In this document: positions 41,772-62,879 of the stretch, piece by piece
Position numbering within the stretch: position 1 is the stretch's first letter
Layout: every line of letters starts with the position of its first letter
Assembly (NCBI GenBank): GCA_043228905.1
Contig: JBHGNT010000014.1
Location: forward strand, 13,578,001-13,642,000
Source of the DNA: Azolla caroliniana
Lineage: Eukaryota; Plantae; Polypodiophyta
Length of the DNA: 64,000 nucleotides
Direction: 5' to 3'
Position numbers and translations under genes: made by a program
Notes under the pieces: model-generated
Told to the model about the DNA's origin: nothing
What the model saw: only the letters and a program-made list of their open reading frames with translations
Databases searched by the model: none

Positions 41772-41827
41772 AAGGGTGGAACCCATAACCCCTGGGTCTC
41801 CAATGCGCAACCTTACCTACTAAGACA

Positions 41828-41862
<35 letters not shown>

Positions 41863-42567: not shown

Positions 42568-43052
42568 CTTACAAGTGAGCTCTTCTAATGGATAATGCCA
42601 ACTACTCATAATTGGATCATGACTATCATAGACCAAACTATTAAACAAGGTTTGTGAAATAATTATGATGGCCACCACGTCATGACTAGGCTCAAACTTG
42701 TGACCTATGTATACATATACCAAGGATTTAACCATTAAACCAACTAACATTAATAGCTTTTATATCATAAAGGGTTGAACTGTAGAACATTCTAGAACTT
42801 TTCTGAACATCCTAGAATGAAACCCCCTCACTCTTCTCAAACCATTCCGATTCAACGCTAGTCTCGAGTCCTCTAAGGAAGCCCTCTCTTGTATCTCTTT
42901 AACTTAATACATATTTCCTTATCTTTTTTTTTTTTTTTTTCCCCGTAAATAATGGCTTTCATTACGAAAGAAAAAACACCACCATGACTAACTTACAACA
43001 AACTATAGAACCCTTTCTATCTAGGGATCTAAAGAAAACTACGACACCAAAC

Positions 43053-46000
43053 TCAATGCCACCCTACACACCAATTCAAATGGCGAATATGATGATATGT
43101 GACCTTGCAGAGTTCTCTCTCTTCTTGGTTGAGATTTTGTGACTTCTCTAGCACTGTCAATTGCCACAAAAGAAGTCCTTTTAACTTAAGAACATATTTT
43201 CTCACCCCAACTTGTGAATAAAAAATGAAGGCATTCCGCATATTCCAATTGAACCATACCTCAAGAACTCAAAAATAATTTGAAAATGAGGCATCGGTTC
43301 ATTGTTCTCCATATGTGCAAAAACCCAACTGAAGGAAGATAGACTTACTCCTGTTAGAGACATCCACACTAAACTGATACACCCCCAAACCATCCTTGCC
43401 ATCGGGCATGAAATAAATCGATGCCTACTATGTTCCAATTCCAACGAACAAAAGAAACACAATCCTTTAGTAATGTTTCTTCTTTTTAATGCATCCCCTA
43501 ATGGTAAAGCTCCAACCATAACTCTCCAAATAAATATCTTGGCTTGTAGCATCAATCGAGAACACCAACCTGCCTTGATCACATGAAACCACCAAGTAAT
43601 GGGCTTATGAAAACCCCATATCTTTATAACCCTTTCTTCCAACCACTTATGTTTGTCAATCAACTTGTGATAAGCAACATTCGTTGAGATCATAGTCAAT
43701 CTCTTATTTCCAACAAACCTCCAATCAAGCTCTTGAGATCGCCCATCTAAATCAGGAATTGGCTCATGCAAAGATAGTATTTGTTGCAACTTATCCCAAA
43801 TAAAGTTATAACCTTTTGGAATACGAAATGTTGATCTTATTGTTCGAAAAGCCATTAATCTTCTTTGTGAAACCAACATAGCATCCTTAACTCTTACCAA
43901 ACCCAATCTAGCCATCCGATTAAATTGAAGGTTAAGAATTTGTTTACCTTCCCACCTCAACAACCTTGATGTTGCCAAAACCTCCATTTGTAATGAATTG
44001 GCACATCCCCTATCTTGTGGGGGATGCCATTCCACAAAATCCAACATACTTTGCCAAGCTGTCAACAAATGATTAACTATCATAGACCTTGTACATTTGA
44101 CATCCCTGTCAGAATTAATTACATTCCACCAATTCGCTTCAACCTTCATGTTTCCAAGCTTTATTCCGTTCTTCTCTATAAAGTATGCCACCATTTCTGT
44201 CCAAGGTTGTACACCTTCAAACATGAATCGAATGAAAGTAAATCGACGAGCCACCATATGCTCATATAGATTCAATATTGATGCCCCACCAAGACGCTTC
44301 GGAGTACAAACATGATCCCATGCCAACCATGACAAGGAACTTTTCCCTTTTCTTTTCCATAACAACATTCGCATCGAGCGTGACAACATTTCAAGAGCTT
44401 TCTTTGACCATGGGAGCAAAGGAAGATAATAAGATACCATAGAGACCATAATCGATTGGACCACCTTAAGTCGTACATGAAAAGGCCAAAATTGAGACCT
44501 CCAATACATAAACTTATCCTCCAACCTTTTGGATACCCACTCAATAAGTTTCACATGAGAAACTTCCACCCCAATTGGATATCCAAGATGACGACAAATC
44601 ATACCACGATGTACTATCCTTCCTGACCACCCCAACCCTAACACATCTTGTTCTGTACATGAAATGAGGACAAATTTATGTATATTAATTCTCAACCCTG
44701 AAGCATTTGAAAACAATTCCCACACATCTCTTGTCTTACTAATATTTTCCCGATTAGGTGCCAAAAACATAATATGGTCATCTGCGAGAGCTTGAACAAT
44801 ACATGGGTTCCCTGATGGCAACCTTAGTCCAAGCAATTCTTCCCCCATAGCCATATTGTGTAACTTAACAAGAATAGGATGTGTCACAATAGTGAATAGT
44901 AAAGGACTTACCGAGCATCCTTGTCTAACTGACCTCCGAATAGAAATCGGTTGGGTTACTCCTCCATTAAACATCACATGTGAAACCGAACCCTCCCCTA
45001 ATGTGTATATCAACTTAGACATACGATCACCAAAACCCATATGAGACATCAATTGATTTATAAATGACCAATCCACATTATCATAGGCTTTCTCGATATC
45101 CAATTGTAGCAACACTAATTCTTGTTTAGACTCCTTTGCATAGTCAATTGCCATTTGAACATTTAAAATATTATGTAAAATGTCTCTTTTTGCTAAAAAC
45201 CTATATTGAGCATTATGAATAATAGAAGGTAAAACCTTATGCAACCTATTGGCCATCACTTTTGCAAAAATCTTGTACATTCCCCCCATCAATGAAATAG
45301 GCCTCCATTGAGCAAAGGAAGATGGAGAAGGCACCTTCGGCAAAAGCTTGATCAAACCAATCTTCCAAGAATGAGGCATTTCCCCTGATGTCCACACCTT
45401 CTGAAATAAAATCGTAAAAGGCCCCTTTAACTTAATCACATATTTCTTAAAGAGTTCATGTGTTAATCCATCCCACCCAGGACTCTTATCATTAGCACGA
45501 TGTGACATGACATGTTCCGCCACATCATGCGATACATGATTTTTCACTCCATTAAAAAATACATCTCTATCCTTTTTAACATTATCATCGATACACACTT
45601 GTACATCCAACAATTGTGTATAATATTCTATGCATTTCTTCACAATTTCTTGAGGATCGGAACACATGATACCATTTTCCTCTAACCTTACCACATTATG
45701 TCGTGCATGTGATTCATGAAGGTCATGGAAAAACTTATGTGATTGACAATTAGCATCATCCACTTCTTGTCTTAGACGATGTAGTCTAGCATGTTGATAA
45801 TTTTTTGCCGTTAGGTCATGCATCGCAGAAATTAATACCTCTTGATATCCCATCAACTCTACATCCGTTGGCCAATAAGTTAACAATGAGTTGCATTTAT
45901 CAAGCAAATTAACTAGGAGACTTAATTTCTTTCTCCTTTTAAAAGCATGGTGAATTCCATAATATCTAGTTAACCTCTGAACATTTGCAACAAATACTTC

Positions 46001-46858
46001 CCACGCTTCATACCCATCAAATTGAACGTGATAGGCAAATGCATCAATCAATTGACACATATAGGCATGGAAGACCTCATGATCCAAAAATGATGAATTA
46101 AAAATCAACGGTGGTTTTCCTAAAAACTCATGAAAACCTCTAATTGAGTGGTGATTGAACTCAAAAATTAATGGGAAATGATCTGATATAATTGACCCAT
46201 AAGACACTGAAATATCCAAAATCTCTGGTAAAAAACCTTCGGTATGCATTACATACATTCGATCCAACCTACTCCAAGTATCCTTATATTGGGCTGATTG
46301 AAAGGTATAACCAGGTTCATCTCCCTTGATCCATTTCCATACATCCCTTAACATGACTTCAATCTCAAAATCTCCCCATTCTTGAGCCTCTGGTCCATCC
46401 ATAATAGAGTGGATAGATGTTGATTGATCTGTCTCACAACAAACATTAAAATCTCCCATCAATAAACCCGGTCTACCATTATGAAGCACGGAGTTTAGAG
46501 ATCTCCATAACAACTTTCGTTCTTGTGAAACATTTGATGCATACACACCAACTAACCAAATAGCTTGCCCTTCATAACATATCTCTACCACAATAAATCT
46601 TCCAAATTCATCTGAAACAATTACTTTTGGGTGAAATTTATCTCTTATAAACATGACAATCCCAGAATAATCCCCATGAACCTTGCCAGCATAACATAAT
46701 GTATAACCCTTAGAATAACTAATTAAACCAGCATTCCGATGATCTTTATGCTCTACTGCACATAAAACATCCCATTGCTCACTTAACACAATCCTCCAAA
46801 CCTCATGCATTCTAAATCTAGAACACAATCCCCTCACATTCCATGTGGTGATCTTCAT
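43053..46858 (-). CDS. LINE ORF2 (endonuclease-reverse transcriptase); 1218-aa open frame to 43202, true C-terminus probably reached through a frameshift near 43245
   Basis: MKITTWNVRGL, MGDFN, SRLDRMY, SDHFP (APE); KSPGWDG, WRPISLM, LDIEKAYDNVDW, SVRQGC, ALADD, HLGYPIG (RT); KRLGG; CFFC..E..RHRFISC (zf-RVT). Confidence 0.92.
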
Positions 46859-48192
46859 ACTTTATTTTTTCCTTTTATTCGAGAAATCTCCTTCTCCTTC
46901 ACTGCTAATGTTTCTGCCATATCCTGAAATAAACCCCCTAAGATTGCATATGAATTACTATGGGAATGCAAAACTCCAGACCCCGATGGTTCCTCATGTG
47001 AACGAGGCACCGATTTCCGTTTATTCCAAGGAACATACAAATTACCTTTATTATCAAAAGATAATTTCTTTGGATAGTCCTCTTGACGAACCCATGGTTT
47101 ATTCCGCATGGGATGTGTCGGTGTGACCTTCTCCATAGATACATTATGCCCAACTTTTTTATTAGACTTCTTCATCTTTCCAGAAACTATTGACCATTGT
47201 CCTTCATCCTCTAGAGTCTTTCCATCCTTCTCATTCACAATTTGTGGTTCCTTTGTTTGCTCTGAAATTGTCAAATCTTGAATCTGATCATGAGTTGTAG
47301 GCTCTTCATGTACCACTTCCACTACATTATTTCTTTTTTGAGGACATTCAACCATAAAATGCCCCAACACACCACAATGGAAACAATGTCTTGCAAATGT
47401 ACCCCATTTAAGCCGAAAATACATAGGTGGCATACCAGAACATGCAATCTGTAAACAACGTGGCCTCTTTATAGCAGTATTCCAAAGAATACACATCCGA
47501 TATCGATTTTGAGCATTAGCACTAGGAGGCACCAAGATCTTTCCCAACTTTTCCATCGCTGACCGTAATATTGGCCAAACCACTGAATATGTGCACTCTA
47601 CCTCAACCCATACGGGACACTCTTGCTTTAATATATCTTGATATTCCACTAATGGTCGCCACGGAACAATATGAACCAAACTTTTCTCATAAAAAACTGG
47701 CAATTTATTGAGTCATTTCTCTTTATACTCTTGTGATACCAAAACAACCTCATAAAATCCACGAGGACCAGCATAAACATCCTGAACACAATCAGCTTGT
47801 AAAATCCCACGTAACCATTGTTTGACCCTCCAAAGGAAAGGTATCTTTCCCGTGAAAAACAATATGACCCCTTTATCACAAAAATTAGCAAATGAGCCCA
47901 AAAACTCCTTATTGTCTATTTCTACCTTAGCCACTTCATCGTCAACAAACTCCTCAGCAACTTTCACATTCTCCCTTATACAATCTTCCATTAATATATT
48001 TGCCATGCATCTTAAATGTTCCCAATGACTATCATCTTTCTCAATATCATCTTGTCGCATTGCATCAGCATAAGACATGTCATTACTATTATCTCCAATA
48101 CATCATTTTCTTTTACCATCCCCTCTTGGGCTTGATACTAACTCCACCATGCACGCATCCTTTGAAGAATTTGGAGACTCATCCATATTCAT
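46855..48192 (-). pseudogene. LINE ORF1 (gag-like, CCHC zinc knuckle), disrupted by an in-frame TGA near 48105 and a frameshift near 47710
   Basis: ORF pieces 48078-47713 and 47703-46855. GPRGFYEV, CPVWVE, CFHCGVLGHFMVECP. An in-frame upstream ATG at 48192 is separated from the 48078 ATG by one stop. Confidence 0.8.
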
Positions 48193-51579: not shown

Positions 51580-52592
51580 TCAATCTATATCTTCTATGAA
51601 GTCCTCGATGTCATCATCATGCTCATGAGAAGTACCTGTAAAAATATGACGATATGCCTTGCTTTCTCGCCACAACAAAATGCTGGCATTGAAGTCATGT
51701 TCTTCTAATTCAGGTCCTTCAATAGATATTCGTATCAATGCATCAACCGCATTGGTTTTTAGCCTATTTCTAAACTTATTTTTTATTAGATTTAGGCGAC
51801 TAAAGCCTCTCTCACATGCTGCCGTAGAAGAACACTGAATTAACCCTATCAATGAAAGCTTTAGAAGCTCGGGTAGCTTTTCTTTCCACACATCATTACA
51901 ATTTATCATACCCCAAACATCTAAGAAATCTCTTCCAAGCCATTCCGTGGTAGCTTGCCTTTTAAAAATTGCATATTCATCATACAATTTATCATTATCA
52001 ATTATGGGAGAAAACACTTTCCCATCTATCATTTTTTGAATGCCATAAAAATTTCCAAGTGTTTTCAACTCATTAAGACCCATAGTTTTTCGTGCTAAAA
52101 TGCTTGTAGATCCGGTAGACATGTTCATTGGTGATAACATTTTCAATGCGGAAAGAGTCACCGGATCTTGAAGCCTCTTTTTTATTGTCTCTATCAATGC
52201 CTTAGAAAACAAAGTTTGGAATTGTATGGCTTCAATTAAGTCCTCACCATCAACACTTCTATCGATGAGGATGCTTTTATACATATTACCTTTTGTGGCA
52301 TCTCGTAAAACTGAAAGCATTCCTTTTTCTCTACCATATTCTAGAATAATTGGATAATTATCGTTATCCTTCTCAAAACCATTCAGATCCATCATAACAT
52401 GATGTAAAAATTGTTCTTCTATCTCCCCAATGGCTATCATAGCCAAACCTCCAATGCATGTCACATCCACATATTCCTTTTGGAATTCCATACTTAATGT
52501 AGACATGATCTTAAGTACATCTGCAAGGAAGTGAAGCATATACACTACTTTAAAGTTTCTTAAACTCAAGAATACATTGTATGCATCACTTT
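51580..52592 (-). CDS. hAT transposase, C-terminal part (dimerisation domain, catalytic E)
   Basis: LHFLADVL..LS..FQ; SSTAACERGFSRLNLIKNKFRNRL. In frame with the N-terminal part once the LTR element and one GCGA copy are removed. Confidence 0.92.
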
Positions 52593-52596
52593 GCGA

Positions 52597-53447
52597 TGTC
52601 GTAGTGTAGGTTGCACACTATGTGGAAATTATATTTTTGTCCCTCCGGATAGAGAATGGAGTGCTCGGTGAGAACCGGAAGAAAACGGCATACCGGCAAG
52701 GAGGAAAACGGCATACCGGCAAGGAGGAAAAACGGCATACCGGCAAGGAGGAAAACGGCATACCGGCAAGGAAGAAAACTGCATACCGGCAAGGAAGAGC
52801 CGGATAAAGAGACATAAATGTAAAAAAAAGAAATACTCACTACTGCGCAGGGCGTGATTCGAACTCTGCACCTCCACGTTGACAAACCCCAACCTTACCA
52901 TTACATTAAATTATCTTAAGTGTTTTAAATATAGATTTAATATGTATAAGACCTTTATTTATGCATACCTTTATTAAAAGGTAAATCGTGTATTTCTTTA
53001 ATATATGAAAAAGAAAAAACACGAGACACTAAAAATAACTCATGCACATCTAGCGTGCAAGAGCCCTATACTTAGGAAATAAAAAAAAAGCATCACATGC
53101 ACATTTAGTGTGCATGAACATATGAGAAAAAGCATGTAGCTATGCTTAGTCTCTCCCATCACTATATAAGGATGGGGAGCACATTGTAGTTGTTGTTGAT
53201 TATTTGGATTAAGTATTAATCAATACAAAAATTATTCGTGGGATTCACGATTTATACATCTACTTCTCTCTTAACACCCTAAGTACCAATTAATATAGTA
53301 TACTCGTGTGATTCATGAGTTTCTTATCTTTCTCTTTGCTATTTACTCATAATTAATCTCTATCTCACGAACTTCTTTCTCCTAGTCCAAGACCTCTGTG
53401 GTTCCCACCCGACTCACGCAAACGATCCGGAGCCGAAAGGCACGACA
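52597..53447 (+). repeat. 5' LTR (851 bp)
   Basis: TG...CA with 6-bp terminal inverted repeat TGTCGT/ACGACA. Five 23-24-bp repeats. TATA-like ctatataagg at ~53162. Confidence 0.97.
52822..52916 (-). ncRNA. Putative tRNA-like Pol III cassette, antisense within the 5' LTR (second copy 59317-59411)
   Basis: Minus strand TAATGTAATGGTAAG (A-box-like), GTTCGAATC (B box) at tRNA spacing, then TTTTTTTT. No clean cloverleaf. Confidence 0.5.
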
Positions 53448-53451
53448 CAGT

Positions 53452-53469
53452 TGGTGAACCCGACGTGAA
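53452..53469 (+). other. Primer-binding site complementary to tRNA-Trp(CCA)
   Basis: TGGTGAACCCGACGTGAA is the reverse complement of the plant cytosolic tRNA-Trp 3' end (..TTCACGTCGGGTTCACCA, from memory). Lies 4 nt after the LTR. Confidence 0.85.
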
Positions 53470-53485
53470 GACGGGTGGCAAGGAG

Positions 53486-55525
53486 ATGGAGGCTCAACAA
53501 GCTAACAATATGATGGCGATGTTCGAACGGATGCTTCAAGAACAACGCACGATGTCGGAGATTTCGGCATCAGTAGAGCGGCTCGTGCAACGCAACGGGC
53601 AATTTAATGGTAAGGATGTGTCGCGATATTTGCAGGACTACAAGGCGGAGATGCTCCGGTGCCGGGCTTCGGAAGGACTGCAAGTGACATCCTTTAACCG
53701 GGTGGCGACCGACGGGCTTCAAGGGAGTATCCACGGGTTGCAACAACAAAATCCGACGTGGGAAGCATTCGAAGAGGCGTTAAAGACCACGTTTGCCATC
53801 GAGGACTCCTCCAAGGCAACGCGGAGGGGATTCGAGGATTGGGTGGAAACGTCAGGTAAGGGGCTGAAGGTCCTCGAAGTGTTTTCGACATTCGAAAGTC
53901 GGTTCGGGAGGTTGTCCGCGAGAGATCAAACTATTCTTGCACCGGACAAAGTCATCATGTTTTTGCGAGCTGTGGACGTCCGGGACCGGAAAGATCTCGG
54001 AGTGCTTCTTGAGGACACGACCACCGAAAGCGGCCTCACCGAAACATGGGAAAGCGTGCGGGATATCGTCGCGCGGTACACGAAGAGGGGGCAATGGCTT
54101 GCCAACGAAGAAAAGAGGGTTTCGGAACCGATTCCGAAACCGAGAACGGGACTGGAAGACCATCAACCGAGGGCTCGGGAGATTACGGCCGAGAAGGGAG
54201 TCGACGCGTCTACGGTGGAGCAGCTGCTGAAGGAGATGGAGAATCTAAAGATCGCGATGGTGAAGAAGTCGGATGACCGCCCCACAAGCTCCAAATATAC
54301 GGATCGACGGTGCATATGGTGCGATAGCGCCGAACACGATCGGAGGGATTGCGACGACCATAAGGAGGCGCTACGACGGGATCTCATCTACTACGAGGGA
54401 AACCGGATTCATTCGATGGACTCTCGGAAGCCACTCCGACCGAACTTCCGGAAAGGCGGCATGAAGAAGGTGCTCGAGGAGGAGTTAGCGACAAGAAGCA
54501 ACTATGCGACAACCGCGGGAATATGTGTCGGGGAGTCAACGGGAGCGAAGGCGTCTTTCTGGCCGGAGGTGCTAGGAAACACCGAGAAAACCGACTCCAA
54601 CGATATCCGAAACACCGCGGAAGGCGTCCGGGAAGCTACGGGATGGGAGTGCCCTGTCGACAAGAATAGCATATACGCCCTGTGTCAATTACATGAGGTG
54701 TATGTGGACGAGAAACGACGGCGCACGGAGGATGCGGCCGGACCATCGAAGATACCGGAAAGCTGGAACTCCGGAGGTAAGGGAAAAGAAAAGGCGACTC
54801 CGGCATTCAAGCTCGCCTCGGACATAGAACAACAAACCGACTTGAAAAGAGTGTTCGAGGAAAGAATCTTGGATAGCCGGGTAGATTTTTCGTTGCGGGA
54901 ACTACTCGGAATAGCGAAGAAGGAGTTTCACGATCTTCTCGTGGATCTCGTGAAAAGGAAGAGACAAAGTACGGAGGAAAATGCTCCAAGGGTGAATGCA
55001 AATACCGTTTCAATGAACGACACCGAAGTGGAAGGAGAAATTCCGAACTCCCACTATACAAGGCCACACTGGGCACGTGCGACTACGGAGACTCCGGTCC
55101 GAATCGGCAACATCAAAGAACCCGTGCTAGCATTGATTGATCACGGATCGGAGATCAACTTGATGTCCAAGGAGTTCTACCGAAAGGGGAAGTGGCCTAT
55201 AAACACCAACCATGGATGGAAGATTCGGGCAGCCACGAAAACGACAGAAGACCTATTTGCGGCTTGTCCGGATGTGACGGTAAAGATCGGGGATGTCGAA
55301 ATTGACCAAAATTTCTTTGTGCAGGATGAGGTTTCACATTCTGTCATCCTCGGCCAACCCTTTATCACGGCTTCACGGATGGAGACGAAGGTGCTCGATA
55401 GTGGTGCGGCTTTTGCGCGAATTCGGAGCCAAAACGGAGGGAAATCCGTCCAATTCCTAACGGTGCCGGCAAATCACGGAAGGAACAAGAGGGAACTCTT
55501 GTCCCAAGTGAGAATGGATTTTTAA
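53486..55525 (+). CDS. Gag (CCHC knuckle, DUF4100-like region) fused to aspartic protease
   Basis: GQFNGKDVSRYL, CIWCDSAEHDRRDC, PAFKLASDIE...SLRELLGIAKKEFHD, protease ALIDHGSEINLM...VILGQPF. Confidence 0.9.
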   Translation: MEAQQANNMMAMFERMLQEQRTMSEISASVERLVQRNGQFNGKDVSRYLQDYKAEMLRCRASEGLQVTSFNRVATDGLQGSIHGLQQQNPTWEAFEEALKTTFAIEDSSKATRRGFEDWVETSGKGLKVLEVFSTFESRFGRLSARDQTILAPDKVIMFLRAVDVRDRKDLGVLLEDTTTESGLTETWESVRDIVARYTKRGQWLANEEKRVSEPIPKPRTGLEDHQPRAREITAEKGVDASTVEQLLKEMENLKIAMVKKSDDRPTSSKYTDRRCIWCDSAEHDRRDCDDHKEALRRDLIYYEGNRIHSMDSRKPLRPNFRKGGMKKVLEEELATRSNYATTAGICVGESTGAKASFWPEVLGNTEKTDSNDIRNTAEGVREATGWECPVDKNSIYALCQLHEVYVDEKRRRTEDAAGPSKIPESWNSGGKGKEKATPAFKLASDIEQQTDLKRVFEERILDSRVDFSLRELLGIAKKEFHDLLVDLVKRKRQSTEENAPRVNANTVSMNDTEVEGEIPNSHYTRPHWARATTETPVRIGNIKEPVLALIDHGSEINLMSKEFYRKGKWPINTNHGWKIRAATKTTEDLFAACPDVTVKIGDVEIDQNFFVQDEVSHSVILGQPFITASRMETKVLDSGAAFARIRSQNGGKSVQFLTVPANHGRNKRELLSQVRMDF

Positions 55526-58500
55526 AGCGGACTGTTGCGGAGTGGGGAAGTGATAGTCCGAGAAGCCCTGATACCCCACACAGGAAGAAAACTCTCGGAG
55601 CAAAACAAGTACGAATCGGCCCGGATGGGGCATCTACGTACACGGCCGTAACCGGAGGAATGAAGAAACAATACCGACAAGTGGAGGATAAGTTACGGTC
55701 GGCATCAATAATAAAAGAAGATGAAGAAATCGTGGGAGTGATCGAGGAAGTGTTCTATGGGAATACACTACAACGGCTTGAAGAGCTTGCGGAAGATAAA
55801 AGCCAAGGGAACCGGGTAGTCCCGGTGGAATCGGTCGAGATGTACGAGATCGTTGCGAAAATGGGGCCGGATGCGCTCCGCAAAGAAGAAGCAATGGTAA
55901 GTACGAAATACAAGACCGTGGAGAAGAAGGTGAAACCGGCCGCGGGACCACTACCCGCCGATAGTGAACAAAAGAAGAAAGAAGTCTCGGGAGATCCGAC
56001 ACTTCGGAAGTCCGTGGATATCGGACATGCCTTCACAGATGAGACCCGGAAGAAACTTCGGATCGGTGGAGGTGGGTTCCTCTTACAAGAAGAAGAAAAA
56101 CGGTTTCGAGAGATGTTGGAGCAACATGGCAAAGCATTCGCGTTCACATCGAGGGAGATCGGATGCATTGATCCAAAGATAGTGGAGCCGATGGTGATTT
56201 TCACGATTGATCATGTACCGTGGAACCTGAAGCCGATTCCGGTGCCACGGGCGCATATTCCGAAAGTCATCGACTTGCTCAAGGAGAAGGTGGCGATGGG
56301 GATTCTGGAGCCATCAAGTGCTCCGTACTCAAATCGATGGTTTACGGTTCCGAAGAAGAATGGGTCACTCCAATTCATCCAAGACTTGCAACCGGTGAAC
56401 AAGGTGACGATCCGGAACTCGGGAGTCGGTCCGATAGTGGACGAATTCGCGGAAGCTTTTGCCGGACGTGCGATATACTCCATCGGGGACCTATACTCGG
56501 GGTATGACCAATTCCAACTAGCCGTGGAGAGCCGAGACATCACTACCATGCGGACACCAATAGGACTAGTTCGAATGTGCACACTACCACAAGGAGCGAC
56601 AAACTCGGTTGCACATATGATGAACGCGATGAACAAGGTGCTTCGAGATTGCATTCCGGAGATAACGATGCCGTTTCTAGATGACATTCCGATGAAAGGA
56701 TGCGCGGTGGAAGAAAAAGATGAGACTATGGATGATCGGGGATGCCGAAAGTTCGTGGTCGACCATATTCATGATTGCGAGAAAGTGTTGCGAAAGCTAG
56801 AAGATGTGCACCTAACACTTTCCGGGGAGAAATCGGCATTCGGGCAAGAAGAAATATTGGTGGTCGGACATCTATGTGGACCCTACGGCCGAAGACCGTC
56901 ACCAACAAAGATCGATGCGATTCAAGCTATGAAGGAAGTATGTGAGTCAACATCGGAAGTCCGAAGGTTTCTGGGTGCGTGTGCATTCTATCACATATGG
57001 ATTCCGCACTATGCACATATAGCGGACCCGCTCTATCACTTGTTGCGGAAAGGTAAGAAATTCGAGTGGAAACCGGAACACACTAAAGCCATGAGGAAGC
57101 TCAAGAAGACACTATGGAGGGCGGAATCACTTAAGAAGCCAAGCTACGAGCGGCCAATCATAGTAACGGTTGATACAAGTCCAACCGGTATCGGGTGGGT
57201 CATCAATCAAGCCGACTCGGATGGTTCGCGGTATCCGATCCGATTTGGAGCAAAGGTCCTCAACGAAAGGCAACGCGGATATGCACAAGTCAAAAGAGAA
57301 TTGTGGGGAGTCGTGTCGGCGATAAAATCGGATCGGGATTATTTGATCGGAGCTGAAGTGGTGATCGAGACGGATTGTCTTCCGATACTCGGGATGATGC
57401 GGTGTTGTACGATACCGGATGTGGCTATGCTAAGGTGGATTGCATATGTCAAGTCACTTAATCCGGAGGTTCGACACATCTCGGGGAAGGACAACGCGGT
57501 AGCGGACATGTTATCGAGGGCGCGGTTTGAAGACGACATAACCGAATCAGATAATGAAGAAGTTTCCGAAGACTACTTCACGTCAGAACACATATGCCGA
57601 GTGAACGTGATCCGAGAATTCCGGGAAGAAGAATACGAGGGGGAAACCTTGATGATCGGGAAGATGCTACAAGAGGTCGAGGATTCAACCAATGATAAAG
57701 AAAGGAGAGCCGAGATCCGAAGGAAGAAGAGGCAAGTCCAAAAGTTCTTCTTGGAAAACGGTTTAATATGGAGGACGCCGAAAAGACCGGATGGGATACC
57801 ACTTCGAGTAGTCGGGAAGAAAGAGCAACGAAACCGGATAATGTCCGAGTTCCACGAATCCGATTGGGCTGGACATCGAGGAACATGGGCAACTTTTGTG
57901 AAAATCAAGCAAAGATATTGGTGGAAGAACATGTATAAAGATGTCGCGGAGTTCACAGAAAGCTGCGAGAAATGTCAAGTCTACTCCGGGGTCCGACACC
58001 GAGATGAGCTGCATCCGACATTCTCACCGACAATCAACTTCAAGTGGATGGTCGACATTGTAGCTATGCCGACCGGGATTGGACAAAAGAAATACTTGGT
58101 GTTAGCTCGAGAAGATCTCACAAACCAAGTTGAAGGTCGAGCGCTTCGGAGGAAAACGTGTGCCGCGGTGTGCCAATTTCTTTTGGAAGAAGTGTTTTGT
58201 AGGTACGGCTGCGTAGGACAAGTGATTGCGGACCGGGGAGAACTCGACTCGGACAAAGCTAGGGGATTCTTCGCCAAACATGGAGTTCGGTTAACGTTGA
58301 CAACGGCCTACAATCCGGAGGCCAACGGGAAGATCGAACGAGGACATAGTCCGATCGTGAAAGCACTTGCGAAGGCATGCGACGGAAGGGTGAAGGATTG
58401 GCCACAAATGCTTCCGTATGCACTATGGGCGGATCGGACGACGCATAGCTCCGTGACCGGTTACATGCCGGCAGAACTCATGACCGGACAAGCACCGGTA

Positions 58501-59127
58501 ATGCCAACGGAAACCGCAATCGCGACATGGACAATACTACCGTGGAAGGAAGAGATGAGTCGGGAAGAACTACTAGCGGTCCGGATACGACAACTGGAGG
58601 GAAGACCGAAAGATGTAGCGGAAGCGTCACGCCGACAACAAGAAGCACGGTTCCGGAACAAAAGTCGGTTCGACACAAAGCACCGACTACGACCGAGGAG
58701 GATTGAAGAAGGAGATTGGGTGATCGTCTATGATAGTAGCTTGGACCATCAACATACAACGATGCGGAAATTCGCGAAAAGGTGGTTCGGGCCGTACGAG
58801 GTTCGGAAGGTCTTCGACAACGGGACGTACCGACTGTCCGAGTTGGATGGAACAATACTACGAGTGCCTATAGCCGGGAAGCGGGTGAAGATTTTCAAGA
58901 AGCGGACCGACGACAAACCTTATGTGATCCAAGTCGAGGCCGACAACGAGGAGCAATCGGACGAAGACCACAATGATGCGGGAAGCGAAGAAAGTGGATT
59001 ACAACTCATAGTCGACATAAGGGGAGAATCGGAGGAAGCTTCGGATGAAGACGGATACGAAGAATCAAGAACTTCGGCACATACCGGAGGATGTGCGGGT
59101 TTGGAGGGGGCGAGTGTCGTAGTGTAG
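55516..59127 (+). CDS. Pol (RT-RNase H-integrase) in the -1 frame relative to gag; first in-frame ATG after the gag stop at 55660
   Basis: YSNRWFTVPKKNG, DLYSGYDQ, LPQGATNS, FLDD (RT); VDTSPTGIG, ETDCLP, NAVADMLSR (RH); HHCC, MVDIV, IADRGE, NPEANGKIER, WFGPY (INT). No chromodomain, acidic tail, stop inside the 3' LTR. Confidence 0.95.
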   Translation, partial: GFLKRTVAEWGSDSPRSPDTPHRKKTLGAKQVRIGPDGASTYTAVTGGMKKQYRQVEDKLRSASIIKEDEEIVGVIEEVFYGNTLQRLEELAEDKSQGNRVVPVESVEMYEIVAKMGPDALRKEEAMVSTKYKTVEKKVKPAAGPLPADSEQKKKEVSGDPTLRKSVDIGHAFTDETRKKLRIGGGGFLLQEEEKRFREMLEQHGKAFAFTSREIGCIDPKIVEPMVIFTIDHVPWNLKPIPVPRAHIPKVIDLLKEKVAMGILEPSSAPYSNRWFTVPKKNGSLQFIQDLQPVNKVTIRNSGVGPIVDEFAEAFAGRAIYSIGDLYSGYDQFQLAVESRDITTMRTPIGLVRMCTLPQGATNSVAHMMNAMNKVLRDCIPEITMPFLDDIPMKGCAVEEKDETMDDRGCRKFVVDHIHDCEKVLRKLEDVHLTLSGEKSAFGQEEILVVGHLCGPYGRRPSPTKIDAIQAMKEVCESTSEVRRFLGACAFYHIWIPHYAHIADPLYHLLRKGKKFEWKPEHTKAMRKLKKTLWRAESLKKPSYERPIIVTVDTSPTGIGWVINQADSDGSRYPIRFGAKVLNERQRGYAQVKRELWGVVSAIKSDRDYLIGAEVVIETDCLPILGMMRCCTIPDVAMLRWIAYVKSLNPEVRHISGKDNAVADMLSRARFEDDITESDNEEVSEDYFTSEHICRVNVIREFREEEYEGETLMIGKMLQEVEDSTNDKERRAEIRRKKRQVQKFFLENGLIWRTPKRPDGIPLRVVGKKEQRNRIMSEFHESDWAGHRGTWATFVKIKQRYWWKNMYKDVAEFTESCEKCQVYSGVRHRDELHPTFSPTINFKWMVDIVAMPTGIGQKKYLVLAREDLTNQVEGRALRRKTCAAVCQFLLEEVFCRYGCVGQVIADRGELDSDKARGFFAKHGVRLTLTTAYNPEANGKIERGHSPIVKALAKACDGRVKDWPQMLPYALWADRTTHSSVTGYMPAELMTGQAPVMPTETAIATWTILPWKEEMSREELLAVRIRQLEGRPKDVAEASRRQQEARFRNKSRFDTKHRLRPRRIEEGDWVIVYDSSLDHQHTTMRKFAKRWFGPYEVRKVFDNGTYRLSELDGTILRVPIAGKRVKIFKKRTDDKPYVIQVEADNEEQSDEDHNDAGSEESGLQLIVDIRGESEEASDEDGYEESRTSAHTGGCAGLEGASVVV
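59103..59114 (+). other. Polypurine tract
   Basis: GGAGGGGGCGAG immediately before the 3' LTR. Confidence 0.85.
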
Positions 59128-59942
59128 GTTGCACACTATGTGGAAATTATATTTTTGTCCCTCCGGATAGAGAATGGAGTGCTCGGTGAGAACCGGAAGA
59201 AAACGGCATACCGGCAAGGAGGAAAAACGGCATACCGGCAAGGAGGAAAACGGCATACCGGCAAGGAAGAAAACTGCATACCGGCAAGGAAGAGCCGGAT
59301 AAAGAGACATAAATGTAAAAAAAAGAAATACTCACTACTGCGCAGGGCGTGATTCGAACTCTGCACCTCCACGTTGACAAACCCCAACCTTACCATTACA
59401 TTAAATTATCTTAAGTGTTTTAAATATAGATTTAATATGTATAAGACCTTTATTTATGCATACCTTTATTAAAAGGTAAATCGTGTATTTCTTTAATATA
59501 TGAAAAAGAAAAAACACGAGACACTAAAAATAACTCATGCACATCTAGCGTGCAAGAGCCCTATACTTAGGAAATAAAAAAAAAGCATCACATGCACATT
59601 TAGTGTGCATGAACATATGAGAAAAAGCATGTAGCTATGCTTAGTCTCTCCCATCACTATATAAGGATGGGGAGCACATTGTAGTTGTTGTTGATTATTT
59701 GGATTAAGTATTAATCAATACAAAAATTATTCGTGGGATTCACGATTTATACATCTACTTCTCTCTTAACACCCTAAGTACCAATTAATATAGTATACTC
59801 GTGTGATTCACGAGTTTCTTATCTTTCTCTTTGCTATTTACTCATAATTAATCTCTATCTCACGAACTTCTTTCTCCTAGTCCAAGACCTCTGTGGTTCC
59901 CACCCGACTCACGCAAACGATCCGGAGCCGAAAGGCACGACA
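59115..59942 (+). repeat. 3' LTR (828 bp)
   Basis: Matches the 5' LTR except for one fewer 23-bp unit and one C/T difference that I could find by eye (53316 T vs 59811 C). Confidence 0.97.
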
Positions 59943-61164
59943 GCGATTGCAAAGTCTTCATCAAGGGTTCATACACATCACATACCCTCATGATAGCACC
60001 ATGCCGACTAAGCCATCGTGTCTTCACAATCCCAAGAATATGCAAATGTGTGTATTCTAATGCATCTTGCATCTTACTTAATTCACCTTGGCGCATTGAG
60101 CTCCTCGAGAAATGTGCAGCCACCCGATTCACAAGGGCATCTAACTGCTTGCATGTTTCTTTGACTTCGACGTTCTTTGAAGCCTCTTGCACACACAAGT
60201 TTGTTCGATGTGCACAACAATGTAATGAAGTCATAAATGGATTATATGACTTCAATCTTGTAGCAACACCTGTAGACATACCTACCATAACAGATGCTCC
60301 ATCACTTCCAAATCCCATCATTTTTCTAACATCTAAGTTCCACTTTTTTAACAACGCTAAAATGTTTTCTGTTATTGTTTTTGTTGTACCATCCTCTACT
60401 TCAAGTACCCCTAAATAAGAGGTTCGTACTTGCCTTCCTTCCACAAATGTAGCGTAAAGGATCAAGTTCTTGGTCACACTTACATCGGTAGCTTCATCTA
60501 CCATAAGCCCAAACCAAGGACTTGTCCTCAACCTTTCATATATCTCGGCTTCAAGAGCCTTGCTAATGTGCAAGATAAAGCTTGCACAAGCCTTATTATC
60601 ATTGTACATTCGTGGAAGGCCTTCCACACCACACTCTCTTAATAAACGTAAGAGGTTTTCCAATTTTCTAAATGCCAAATCCTCTTTAGCTATAAAATAT
60701 GCACATTTAAACAATTTTTCAACTGCTAAATCCACACTAGCTTTTTTCTTTGATGCACATTTTTCAAGACCATTCTTGTCTCGTTCTTGTAACAAAATGG
60801 CATCTCGATGGGCCACACTTCTTGCATGTTCTTCTAATATAGAAGTCTTAAAATTTTTTGCACCTGTTTTTCCAAATAAGGACTTACAATGTGGGTCATT
60901 CCTACAATAACTACACCATAGAAGCCCAGTTTCTAAATCCTCTTGAAGCCACTTAAATTTAGTAGGCCAATCTTCTTGAAATCTTAGTTTCGCCTTACTA
61001 ACTCTATTTATCTCATTAATTGACTCTTGAGAGTATTGTTGGTCTTTTATAGGTTCTTCTAGAGACACATCTTCATTAGAAGATGACATGTTCTTCCTAA
61101 AACAAGGCATTGTATGAAGGCTCATTTGTTTTCCCTTGCCTTTGCTATTTTTGTTGTGCGACAT
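59943..61164 (-). CDS. hAT transposase, N-terminal part (TTF-type zinc finger, DUF4371, catalytic D/D)
   Basis: WPTKFKWL..LWCSYCR..LEEHARSVAH; GLMVDEATDVS; GFGSDGASVM; HCCAHRTNL; KTRWLSR. Confidence 0.92.
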
Positions 61165-62879
61165 ACTGTAACAATAAGGTAGAGTATATTGAACAATCAT
61201 AATCTATCATTTTCATTTACAAGAAAGGGAAACATACATACACAATCCATGTTTTCCAAAGAGAATAAGAAAATTAAAATACTTGGAATATATGGAAGAT
61301 TGCGAGGCTATAAAAGATTGAGTTTCCACTATGGATCTTCCAATCTATAAAAAAATAAAGAAGAAAGAGGAAGCCTCACATTAGCTTACACGCACATGCA
61401 AATGATAAATAATACATATCTTCACTATTTACTAGTTCATCTCTTTCTTAGCATGTTCGATGCAAAACGCAATTGAAACTCTTAAATTGAATGTCAAAAC
61501 CTCAAAATAATTTCACTATCAATGAGACATACATGCATTGTCTTCGTCTCATGCATGCATTGTCTTCGTCTCATGTTTGGGTCATAAAGTCAAAAGTTTG
61601 AGCAATACATTGTACACATCATACATGTGTATCCAAATATGCACAAAGTGGCCTCGTGGTGTTTACACTAATTATGCTACTCTATCTTGACTTGTCCTAA
61701 ACTTGTATGCTACTCTTGGATCTTCATACAAATCTATTTACATAGAGACAATATGAAATACATGAGCATATGTAACAATTCTTGCTACATCTATATTGAA
61801 AGCACCACTTCATCTTAAGGTTTATGGTAAGTTTGTTTAAAGTAATTGAAATTACCATGCAATGTATTGATTATGAACCGTCACTACAACATTGGTTAGG
61901 GACTCATTGGTTTAAAGCTTAGCAAATCAAGCGATATAAAACCGAGAGAACATGGGTTAGGAATCAGGATGACATGTTATCAAATCACTTGCTCCAACTC
62001 GTTCCTAATGACATCAACATACTCTCTTAGATACGTAGTTCCACATCTTACATGAAAAAAATGAGCAAGACCATTGACAAGTACACAATTGTTCGCATTC
62101 GGCTCAAACTAGGAGACAAATAGACGGGAGAAAACGACAACTAATAGCAAGTTATGAAATCTATGTGGGAGGGGAATACAAACAAATGAGCATTTCATTG
62201 ACATATGCTATGCATGCTATATTGGAGGCAATTACCATTATATATTTCGGGACAAATTCGGACCATTGTACCAAATCACGGAGTGCGAAGGCCCAAAAAG
62301 TTTATGATATTCTTTCTCATGGTTAAACACACTTGCCACGAATCATGGGCCCATGCACTTCTCTCCTCTTCTTTGCCTTTTTTTGAAAACAAAAAAACAG
62401 AGGAAAGCAGAGCCTTTGTTTCCCTCTCTCTTCTTGTTGACTCTGATTGTTTTCTGTGTATCCAACAGCAGCAAGCAAGCCATCTTAAAACTTTATAAGG
62501 TTTCACCATTAAATTAGGGTCTCAATCCCAATACAGGCCTAATTCTGAGAGAGTCTCAGTGTCCTTTTGAAAGGCTCAAACTTTCATACCCTGATTGACA
62601 GAAGAGGCACTCTGATGCTCTCAAAACATACAACAATCTCTTTTGATGCCCCTAAAAAATGATTTAGATATATCTCCAGCTTCTAGCTTCCATCATCGTT
62701 CTGAAATCCTAACAGCCATATCCATTGGAGCAGCTAGCTGCAAAGATGTATGAGGTAAAGCACTTATAGATCCAGCTATGGAGATGAGTTAATCACTTGA
62801 AACTTTCTTTCAAGGTCTTTCTTGTTCCTTTGCAAGAATTGTTAGCGAGAAAGAATTATGAGGTTTCAAAGAGAATGTG

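Follow-up and report, generated by a model that had tools for sequence, protein, structure and literature searches.

RNA polymerase III (Pol III) promoters in plant LTRs have so far been described, in the portions of the literature available to us, only in miniature non-autonomous elements, whose own RNA they drive. According to a 2025 review, plant LTR elements are transcribed by Pol II, with Cassandra as the exception (PMC12786077). Kojima reports that 'not a few' Repbase LTRs have tRNA-like parts and proposes SINE insertion as their origin; the available sections of that paper name Selaginella as the only plant source of Helenus, expect Pol II transcription in autonomous partners, and give other tRNA-like LTRs a single sentence (PMC10886601). 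Beyond this earlier glimpse (one sentence in the available text of PMC10886601), we found no paper among open-access titles and abstract openings on terminated A/B-box units in autonomous plant gypsy LTRs. Here, Pol III-type boxes sit in full-length coding elements, are misoriented for making the elements' own RNA, and outlast the DNA that surrounds them.

The window (the whole 64,000-nucleotide stretch analysed) contains a protein-coding, gypsy-type LTR retrotransposon of 7346 bp (52597-59942; Table 1). Each of its LTRs carries, in antisense, an A box, an AGGT word, a B box and a T8 run at tRNA spacing, and the two copies are identical. Since the LTRs differ by only one substitution and one 23-nt repeat unit, the insertion is very recent, and the Pol III-type units of the 5' and 3' LTR represent a single event. 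Pfam matches in frame 2 were limited to RT, RNase H and integrase, and no chromodomain was found in the element. We call the element Phygy-like on the basis of its target duplication, presumed type of primer-binding site (PBS) and domain content; its closest named protein relatives are from Riccia (48-68%), which, with the Phygy traits, suggests a non-seed plant as host. The PBS is presumably that of tRNA-Trp. This label agrees with the Phygy row of PMC6317226.

Several other features of the element and its surroundings were recorded. Of 57 sequences with both frames (the window and fetched loci), 55 have frame 2 in the -1 phase relative to frame 1, and a GGATTTT word stands directly before the frame-1 stop (55516-55525) in the window and in many relatives; a -1 programmed frameshift is likely, sited after the protease-like region and not before it. 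The U3 holds tandem purine-rich repeats of 22-23 nt at 52670-52800, past the unit's T-run in the minus-strand sense, and their copy number is unequal between the two LTRs. In many of these LTRs, CATGCA/TGCATG palindromes, which we take to be RY-like, are conserved or form arrays on the upstream side of the TATA-like box. The retrotransposon splits an otherwise open hAT-like transposase frame (59860-61203 and 51580-52617, minus strand) with zf-C17orf113, DUF4371 and hAT dimerisation domains. A LINE-like element, identified by eye, occupies 43202-47712 on the minus strand, with two long frames (1219 and 285 aa) and poly(A) near 42940.

Table 1. Features of the retrotransposon and of its Pol III-type units, in window coordinates
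Feature	Position	Strand	Remarks
Target-site duplication GCGA (NCGN type)	left 52593..52596, right 59943-59946	+	NCGN is the Phygy preference in the available part of PMC6317226
5' LTR	52597..53447	+	851 nt, TGTCG...CGACA
T8 run, predicted Pol III terminator	52822..52829	-	begins 27 nt after position 61
B box GTTCGAATC, positions 53-61	52856..52864	-	5' LTR
Conserved AGGT, tRNA variable-loop positions 44-47	52870..52873	-	5' LTR
A-box region, tRNA positions 8-21	52896..52908	-	5' LTR
AT-rich stretch upstream of A box	52909..52940	-	predicted start region and putative TFIIIB side
CATGCA palindrome block, kept in sister LTRs	53039..53068	+	between Pol III-type unit and TATA-like box
TATA-like box, predicted Pol II core promoter	53162..53170	+	second copy at 59657; pattern-based call
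Primer-binding site, 18 nt, TGGTGAACCCGACGTGAA	53452..53469	+	common to most relatives
Open frame 1: gag with DUF4100	53357..55525	+	protease-like stretch judged by eye
Open frame 2: RT, RNase H, integrase	55402..59127	+	frame -1 to frame 1
Polypurine tract	59097..59114	+	
3' LTR	59115..59942	+	828 nt
Second unit, 3' LTR	59317..59403	-	T-run 59317-59324, B box 59351-59359, AGGT 59365-59368, A-box region 59391-59403

An earlier note on this DNA had pointed out the minus-strand sequence, which it quoted correctly for both LTRs, and had counted 32 nt from AATGGT to GTTCGA, a spacing that we confirmed. Positions 8-21, 44-47 and 53-61 of a tRNA align on the window unit ungapped, and its A box is atypical at position 10. 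The unit faces away from the TATA-like box, about 250 bp upstream of it. By a second-order Markov model of the window, chance would produce a relaxed A+B+T pattern, fitted to the window copy, 0.19 times in 64 kb and 0.003 times in an 850-nt LTR. Using a two-box weight matrix trained without the element's own RT family or LTR group, the unit scores 32.4 bits, and shuffled LTRs all stayed below 16 bits. The features of a type-2 Pol III unit are thus present in the sequence, with A and B boxes at workable spacing, AT-rich DNA upstream and poly(T) downstream; published descriptions of plant tRNA-type units list the same parts, including the upstream AT-rich region and the downstream poly(T) (PMC13578239, as far as available).

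To see how widely the unit occurs, we used relatives collected by RT peptides, not by LTR sequence, from metagenome contigs (the best 80 of 256 confirmed loci); they come mostly from one assembly series and so do not form a broad plant sample. LTR sequence was obtained from 53 sequences (52 loci and the window), with 27 of the 80 loci having none. RT families were defined by 90% single linkage, and both these families and the LTR-similarity groups were counted if they had a full LTR or 500 nt from the LTR start. An A+B pattern set before any relative was examined found 23 pairs in 40,621 LTR bases, with some elements contributing both of their LTRs and close sisters counted separately; over 200 dinucleotide shuffles the mean was 0.50 and the highest count 3. 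Outside the LTRs, the same pattern gave 6 pairs in 300,539 bases of gag/pol and 0 in the remaining 56,711 bases of the window. When the RT family and LTR group being scored were withheld from the training of the weight matrices (the candidate seed L035, with a spacing of 40, was omitted from training), there were 38 LTR hits of at least 16 bits versus 0 in six shuffles. For further analysis, filtering at 80% identity took 31 units to 26, and dropping a partial duplicate that overlapped another unit in L041 left 25.

Presence in sister elements, which the earlier note had named as a check on its claim, was borne out: where enough LTR sequence was available, 10 of 15 RT families and 8 of 16 LTR-similarity groups have the unit, and 9 of the 15 RT families have it in minus-strand form. 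The earlier note had missed that the unit runs through the lineage, uses both strands and is lacking in some families. There are one to three units per LTR on either strand, 18 of 25 being antisense and seven sense. The elements bearing them have 63-96% pol identity to the window element and are scattered on a quick RT tree, mixed among families without the unit; the tree is taken to show scatter only, with no order of gains and losses claimed. We found no unit in the full LTRs of L008, L009, L013, L026, L027, L029 and L030, nor in L045, L051, L076 and L077, the most distant relatives with usable LTR sequence. Thus, with 5 of 15 RT families and 8 of 16 LTR groups lacking it, the unit is dispensable. 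Scans of IMG/VR returned no relatives.

Within the window, two further A box-AGGT-B box units lie on the minus strand at about 42690-42750 (26.6 bits) and 41775-41830 (19.6 bits), outside any recognised LTR and with no blastn similarity to the fetched loci. The motif is therefore not exclusive to these LTRs, though enriched in them, at a density of 37 units in 40 kb of LTR (a redundant count) versus 2 in 57 kb of other window DNA. At L036:1077 (minus strand), a strong B box with an A-box-like word about 10 nt closer than usual has the look of a deleted or decayed unit.

The placement of units within the LTRs follows a few layouts, with the TATA-like boxes of the relatives called by pattern only. 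Where the LTR start is known, the B box of minus-strand units mostly lies 65-332 nt in (one at 402), and most of these units are upstream of the TATA-like box and face away from it. An additional plus-strand unit downstream of the TATA-like box makes an outward-facing pair in L017, L038, L070 and, weakly, L007. L028 has a convergent pair, and L011, L018 and L020 have a single plus-strand unit upstream.

Conservation is concentrated in the boxes. Among 26 non-redundant units, information reaches 1.0 bits per column at positions 8-21, 1.3 at 43-48 and 1.4 at 53-62, versus 0.1-0.4 elsewhere, and identity between RT families (271 pairs) is 0.65 at 8-21, 0.82 at 43-47 and 0.81 at 53-61, with the rest at 0.29-0.34. 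This contrast is partly ascertainment, because the units were found through their boxes; AGGT was absent from the first search pattern. With 33-41 permitted, 33 of 34 hits have an A-B spacing of 36 or 37. As TFIIIC is described, in the source portions available, as accepting 32-93 bp, its binding alone does not account for the fixed spacing or for AGGT.

Downstream, 16 of 25 units have a run of at least four Ts within 60 nt (nine have none), at 12 of 18 on the minus strand (6.5 expected, P 0.005) and four of seven on the plus strand (1.8 expected), versus four of 25 on the opposite strand. It begins 20-35 nt past position 61 in 12 of 25 units (2.7 expected, for a range picked post hoc), or in 6 of 14 versus 1.5 expected when one unit is taken per family and strand. 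The 20 nt before position 1 have an AT content of 0.78-0.82 over the 25 units, with an LTR mean of 0.60.

A comparison of five LTRs (the window, L058, L002, L050 and L028), chosen for units resembling that of the window, gave invariant columns at 8/10 in the B box, 5/5 in the AGGT region and 6/13 in the A box, with 8/14 in the 3' arm and 5/21 in the spacer. Flanking stretches had 4/215, 5/31, 8/100, 7/90 and 8/220 (0.02-0.16), and the only comparable islands were the CATGCA block (16/30) and the TATA-like block (9/20). When the LTRs of L002 and L050 are compared by blastn, the strongest match is the unit itself (45 nt, 84%). Within families, in four DNA runs and for a core set of our own choosing, one of 19 core positions varied at 3% or more versus 11 of 35 other unit positions (P 0.026) and 28 of the 192 other positions overall (P 0.23), so that we grade within-family constraint as weak; the lone varying core position is C56 of the B box, which lies in a CpG. 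The test set by the earlier note, whether the boxes are more conserved than neighbouring U3, is passed in comparisons across families and weakly within them.

The unit is real, lineage-wide and likely selected. That it is a Pol III-type unit of some kind, held by selection, we regard as probable. Our main reading goes further: judging from the sequence, we put at roughly one in two the chance that the LTR unit is a working Pol III promoter which selection maintains as a DNA module and which would help to hold the neighbouring Pol II promoter open and shielded from silencing. The earlier note's proposal of a Pol III/TFIIIC unit, which might act as a barrier or through an RNA, passed the note's own sequence tests.

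Selection would not be needed if the units were passenger relics, the heads of tRNA-derived SINEs or Helenus-like TRIMs captured into U3 repeatedly and spread by swapping with no benefit. The apparent conservation of the boxes would then reflect donor SINE families that are alike in the boxes and unlike elsewhere. We consider this unlikely; in its favour are the patchy presence, the use of both strands, the uneven copy number, the two units outside the element in the window and the U3 blocks common to different RT families. Kojima's proposal of SINE insertion for tRNA-like LTR parts also favours it, as does the LTR of a plant Helenus with the same AGGT and a 36-nt spacing (PMC10886601 in its available parts; counted by eye in the supplement). 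However, the T-run comes about 25 nt past the B box, where a SINE body would be expected, and downstream of the units we found no shared sequence that might be a SINE body or tail (identity of 0.29 at positions 62-73). Flanking direct repeats average 6.8 nt versus 6.1 nt in shuffled sequence, and the units show none of the SINE hallmarks of body, tail and target-site duplication. Furthermore, the LTRs far exceed other window DNA in unit density, and the unit outlives its own flanks in diverged LTRs.

The presence/absence case of L043 and L046 also speaks against discrete insertion. L043 has the unit in its 5' LTR, while its 3' LTR and L046 lack it, and the difference is a replacement of the entire U3 middle by another block. 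The unit-bearing block of L043 resembles the LTR of L039 (251 nt, 79%), where it is duplicated, although the RTs of the two are distant. Because U3 blocks are common to distant RT families, the units are not independent, and the counts given above are less so than they look. Block replacement, near-shuffled flanking repeats and the absence of a shared tail thus indicate that the unit spreads within swappable U3 modules. The earlier note had also named a recent SINE insertion absent from sister elements as an outcome that would count against its claim; there are no such marks and the sisters have the unit. For the window copy itself, such an insertion is ruled out by four DNA runs (three studies, three organism codes) that cover all 27 bins, the unit throughout, with no joint skipping it. 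An old, eroded SINE origin of the units is possible.

Two side observations concern LTR history. In LTR variants without the unit (L043:9131-9773 and L046:6861-7579), the U3 instead contains arrayed AT-rich repeats of 9 nt, among which TATA-like words occur. L002 (597-1077) has 96% pol identity to the window element, yet its LTR layout is nearer to those of L028 and L050, which have 66-68% pol identity, and this conflict implies that LTR and coding region differ in history.

A second alternative, which we judge quite unlikely, is that the Pol III RNA of about 90 nt itself matters, as an antisense or decoy transcript tuning element expression, packaging or silencing. The terminator-like T-run at its recurring distance on the correct strand (in the post hoc range given above) and the preponderance of antisense units are in its favour, as is the mean fold z of -0.79 over the 25 units, and Pol III units in foamy-virus LTRs are known, with mutational proof, to yield miRNAs (PMC3993851, as far as available). 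Against it, the transcribed part outside the boxes is at background identity, z falls below -2 in only 2 of 25 units, and the window copy is positive, at +1.39 in one fold analysis and +1.6 in another; the seven sense units are a further difficulty. The acceptor, D, anticodon and T stems pair no better than with partners permuted among the 26 units, and no consensus fold was found among the 25. A conserved RNA fold is therefore ruled out by the lack of both stem covariation and a common fold, and the constraint rests on DNA words.

That the segment is not a functional tRNA, as the earlier note had held, is upheld by the positive fold z of the window unit and by annotation searches. ARAGORN found no tRNA genes in the window or in the 60 loci scanned of the 80, and there was no Rfam tRNA match in the window (E<=10) or in nine loci (E<=5). 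With stem pairing at permutation level as well, a functional tRNA is excluded.

Very unlikely, in our estimation, is a role in integration or recombination, with the units as TFIIIB-marked landing pads or replication-pause sites that drive nesting and U3 exchange. The swapping and duplication of U3 blocks around units, and the tandem units of L038, L039, L041 and L070, would suit such a role, but no nested insertion lies beside either unit in the window, and the element's own target was an NCGN site inside the hAT-like frame. The remaining proposal of the earlier note, that the segment is a second docking site on the genomic RNA for the T- and D-loops of the tRNA-Trp primer, is hardly credible: the 11/12 match to the tRNA-Trp T-arm on which it drew does fit the primer end implied by the PBS (positions 53-64, one mismatch), and the antisense orientation would permit pairing, but the match is not conserved, extending through 62-64 in only one of 25 units (that of the window), identity to the primer averages 0.27 over 62-73 and is near 0.2 over 49-52 on the 5' side of the T-stem, the PBS takes primer positions 59-76 and so leaves only six loop bases free, the seven sense units are unable to pair with the primer, the match-breaking variant 52855 T>G dominates one run (3120/3502 depth in X17), and Kojima, in the available sections, found no primer role for the tRNA-like parts of Helenus (PMC10886601). 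On the single full match, the low identity, the PBS overlap and the sense units, we reject primer docking.

If the unit is a Pol III promoter kept as a DNA module, its boxes would be bound by TFIIIC, which would set TFIIIB on the side of the Pol II promoter. Pol III would then yield an unstructured RNA of about 90 nt ending at the T-run, as a by-product, and the bound machinery would serve as a barrier or a nucleosome-free anchor beside the Pol II promoter, much as has been demonstrated for yeast tRNA genes and ETC sites. Families would gain, duplicate and lose the unit through exchange of U3 blocks. The occurrence of units on either strand and in one to three copies is compatible with such a DNA-level role, and TFIIIC sites can act as chromatin barriers (PMC12409998, available parts). 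Counting against the barrier reading, methylation can silence Arabidopsis tRNA genes that lie in repeats (PMC7544208, available parts). The module reading also has to accommodate dispensability, CpG decay in the B box of some copies and the lack of a CpG excess: the observed/expected CpG ratio is 0.77 in LTRs with the unit versus 0.92 in those without, so the bearing LTRs are not CpG-richer and give no hint of protection from methylation. Unstranded contigs on the LTR came from two of four runs guessed to be RNA, and none from the other two, an outcome with no bearing on transcription either way.

A bolder version, which we offer tentatively as possible but somewhat doubtful, is that an autonomous plant retrotransposon lineage has domesticated stripped-down tRNA genes as portable, outward-facing insulators against silencing, traded between families as U3 modules and seeding the host with TFIIIC sites at every insertion. 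In this version the units stand upstream of the Pol II promoter or, in some families (L017, L038, L070 and, weakly, L007), on both sides of it. If the units are bound by TFIIIC, they would constitute a cis-acting anti-silencing device that requires no element-encoded protein, and would offer a natural system for asking if tRNA-type barriers operate in plants, with sister LTRs that have or lack the unit (L043 5' versus 3', L042 versus L046) as direct test material. The units may also suggest how autonomous LTRs could give rise to Helenus-like TRIMs with no new SINE insertion.

Among known systems, the Helenus TRIMs ('TRIMp3', Kojima 2024) come closest in the logic of their sequence, in that they too have tRNA-derived A and B boxes within LTRs (PMC10886601, as are the Helenus details that follow, from its available parts). 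Helenus elements are non-autonomous and 311-1263 bp long, whereas the window element has 7.3 kb, two long frames and a retained TATA-like promoter. The Helenus promoter is proposed to transcribe the element; the units described here are mostly antisense and closed by a T-run (T8 in the window, 27 nt past the B box), and so cannot make genomic RNA. Cassandra TRIMs likewise have an internal Pol III promoter within plant LTRs, but it is of the 5S type (type 1), lies in a non-autonomous element and drives that element's own RNA (PMC10886601 and PMC12786077, available parts). The available account of simian foamy virus LTRs describes self-contained units, each with an A box, a B box and a terminator, that are distinct from the Pol II transcript, as here; their hairpins have been shown experimentally to give miRNAs, in contrast to our units, which are known from sequence and have no conserved fold (PMC3993851). 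The element itself shares with Phygy (Neumann et al. 2019, PMC6317226, available parts) the 4-bp NCGN duplication, the presumed tRNA-Trp PBS, the lack of a chromodomain, and an internal part filled by the coding region with no extra ORF, and at 7346 bp is slightly shorter than the 7656-9968 bp listed; the available parts of that paper do not mention Pol III boxes in LTRs. As for function, the closest likeness in the available literature is to the tRNA-gene and ETC barriers of yeast and mammals, DNA elements that depend on the B box and may act without the RNA (PMC12409998). Those barriers are host loci, not LTR-borne, and ETC sites are without TFIIIB and Pol III, whereas the LTR units retain an A box, an AT tract and a T-run.
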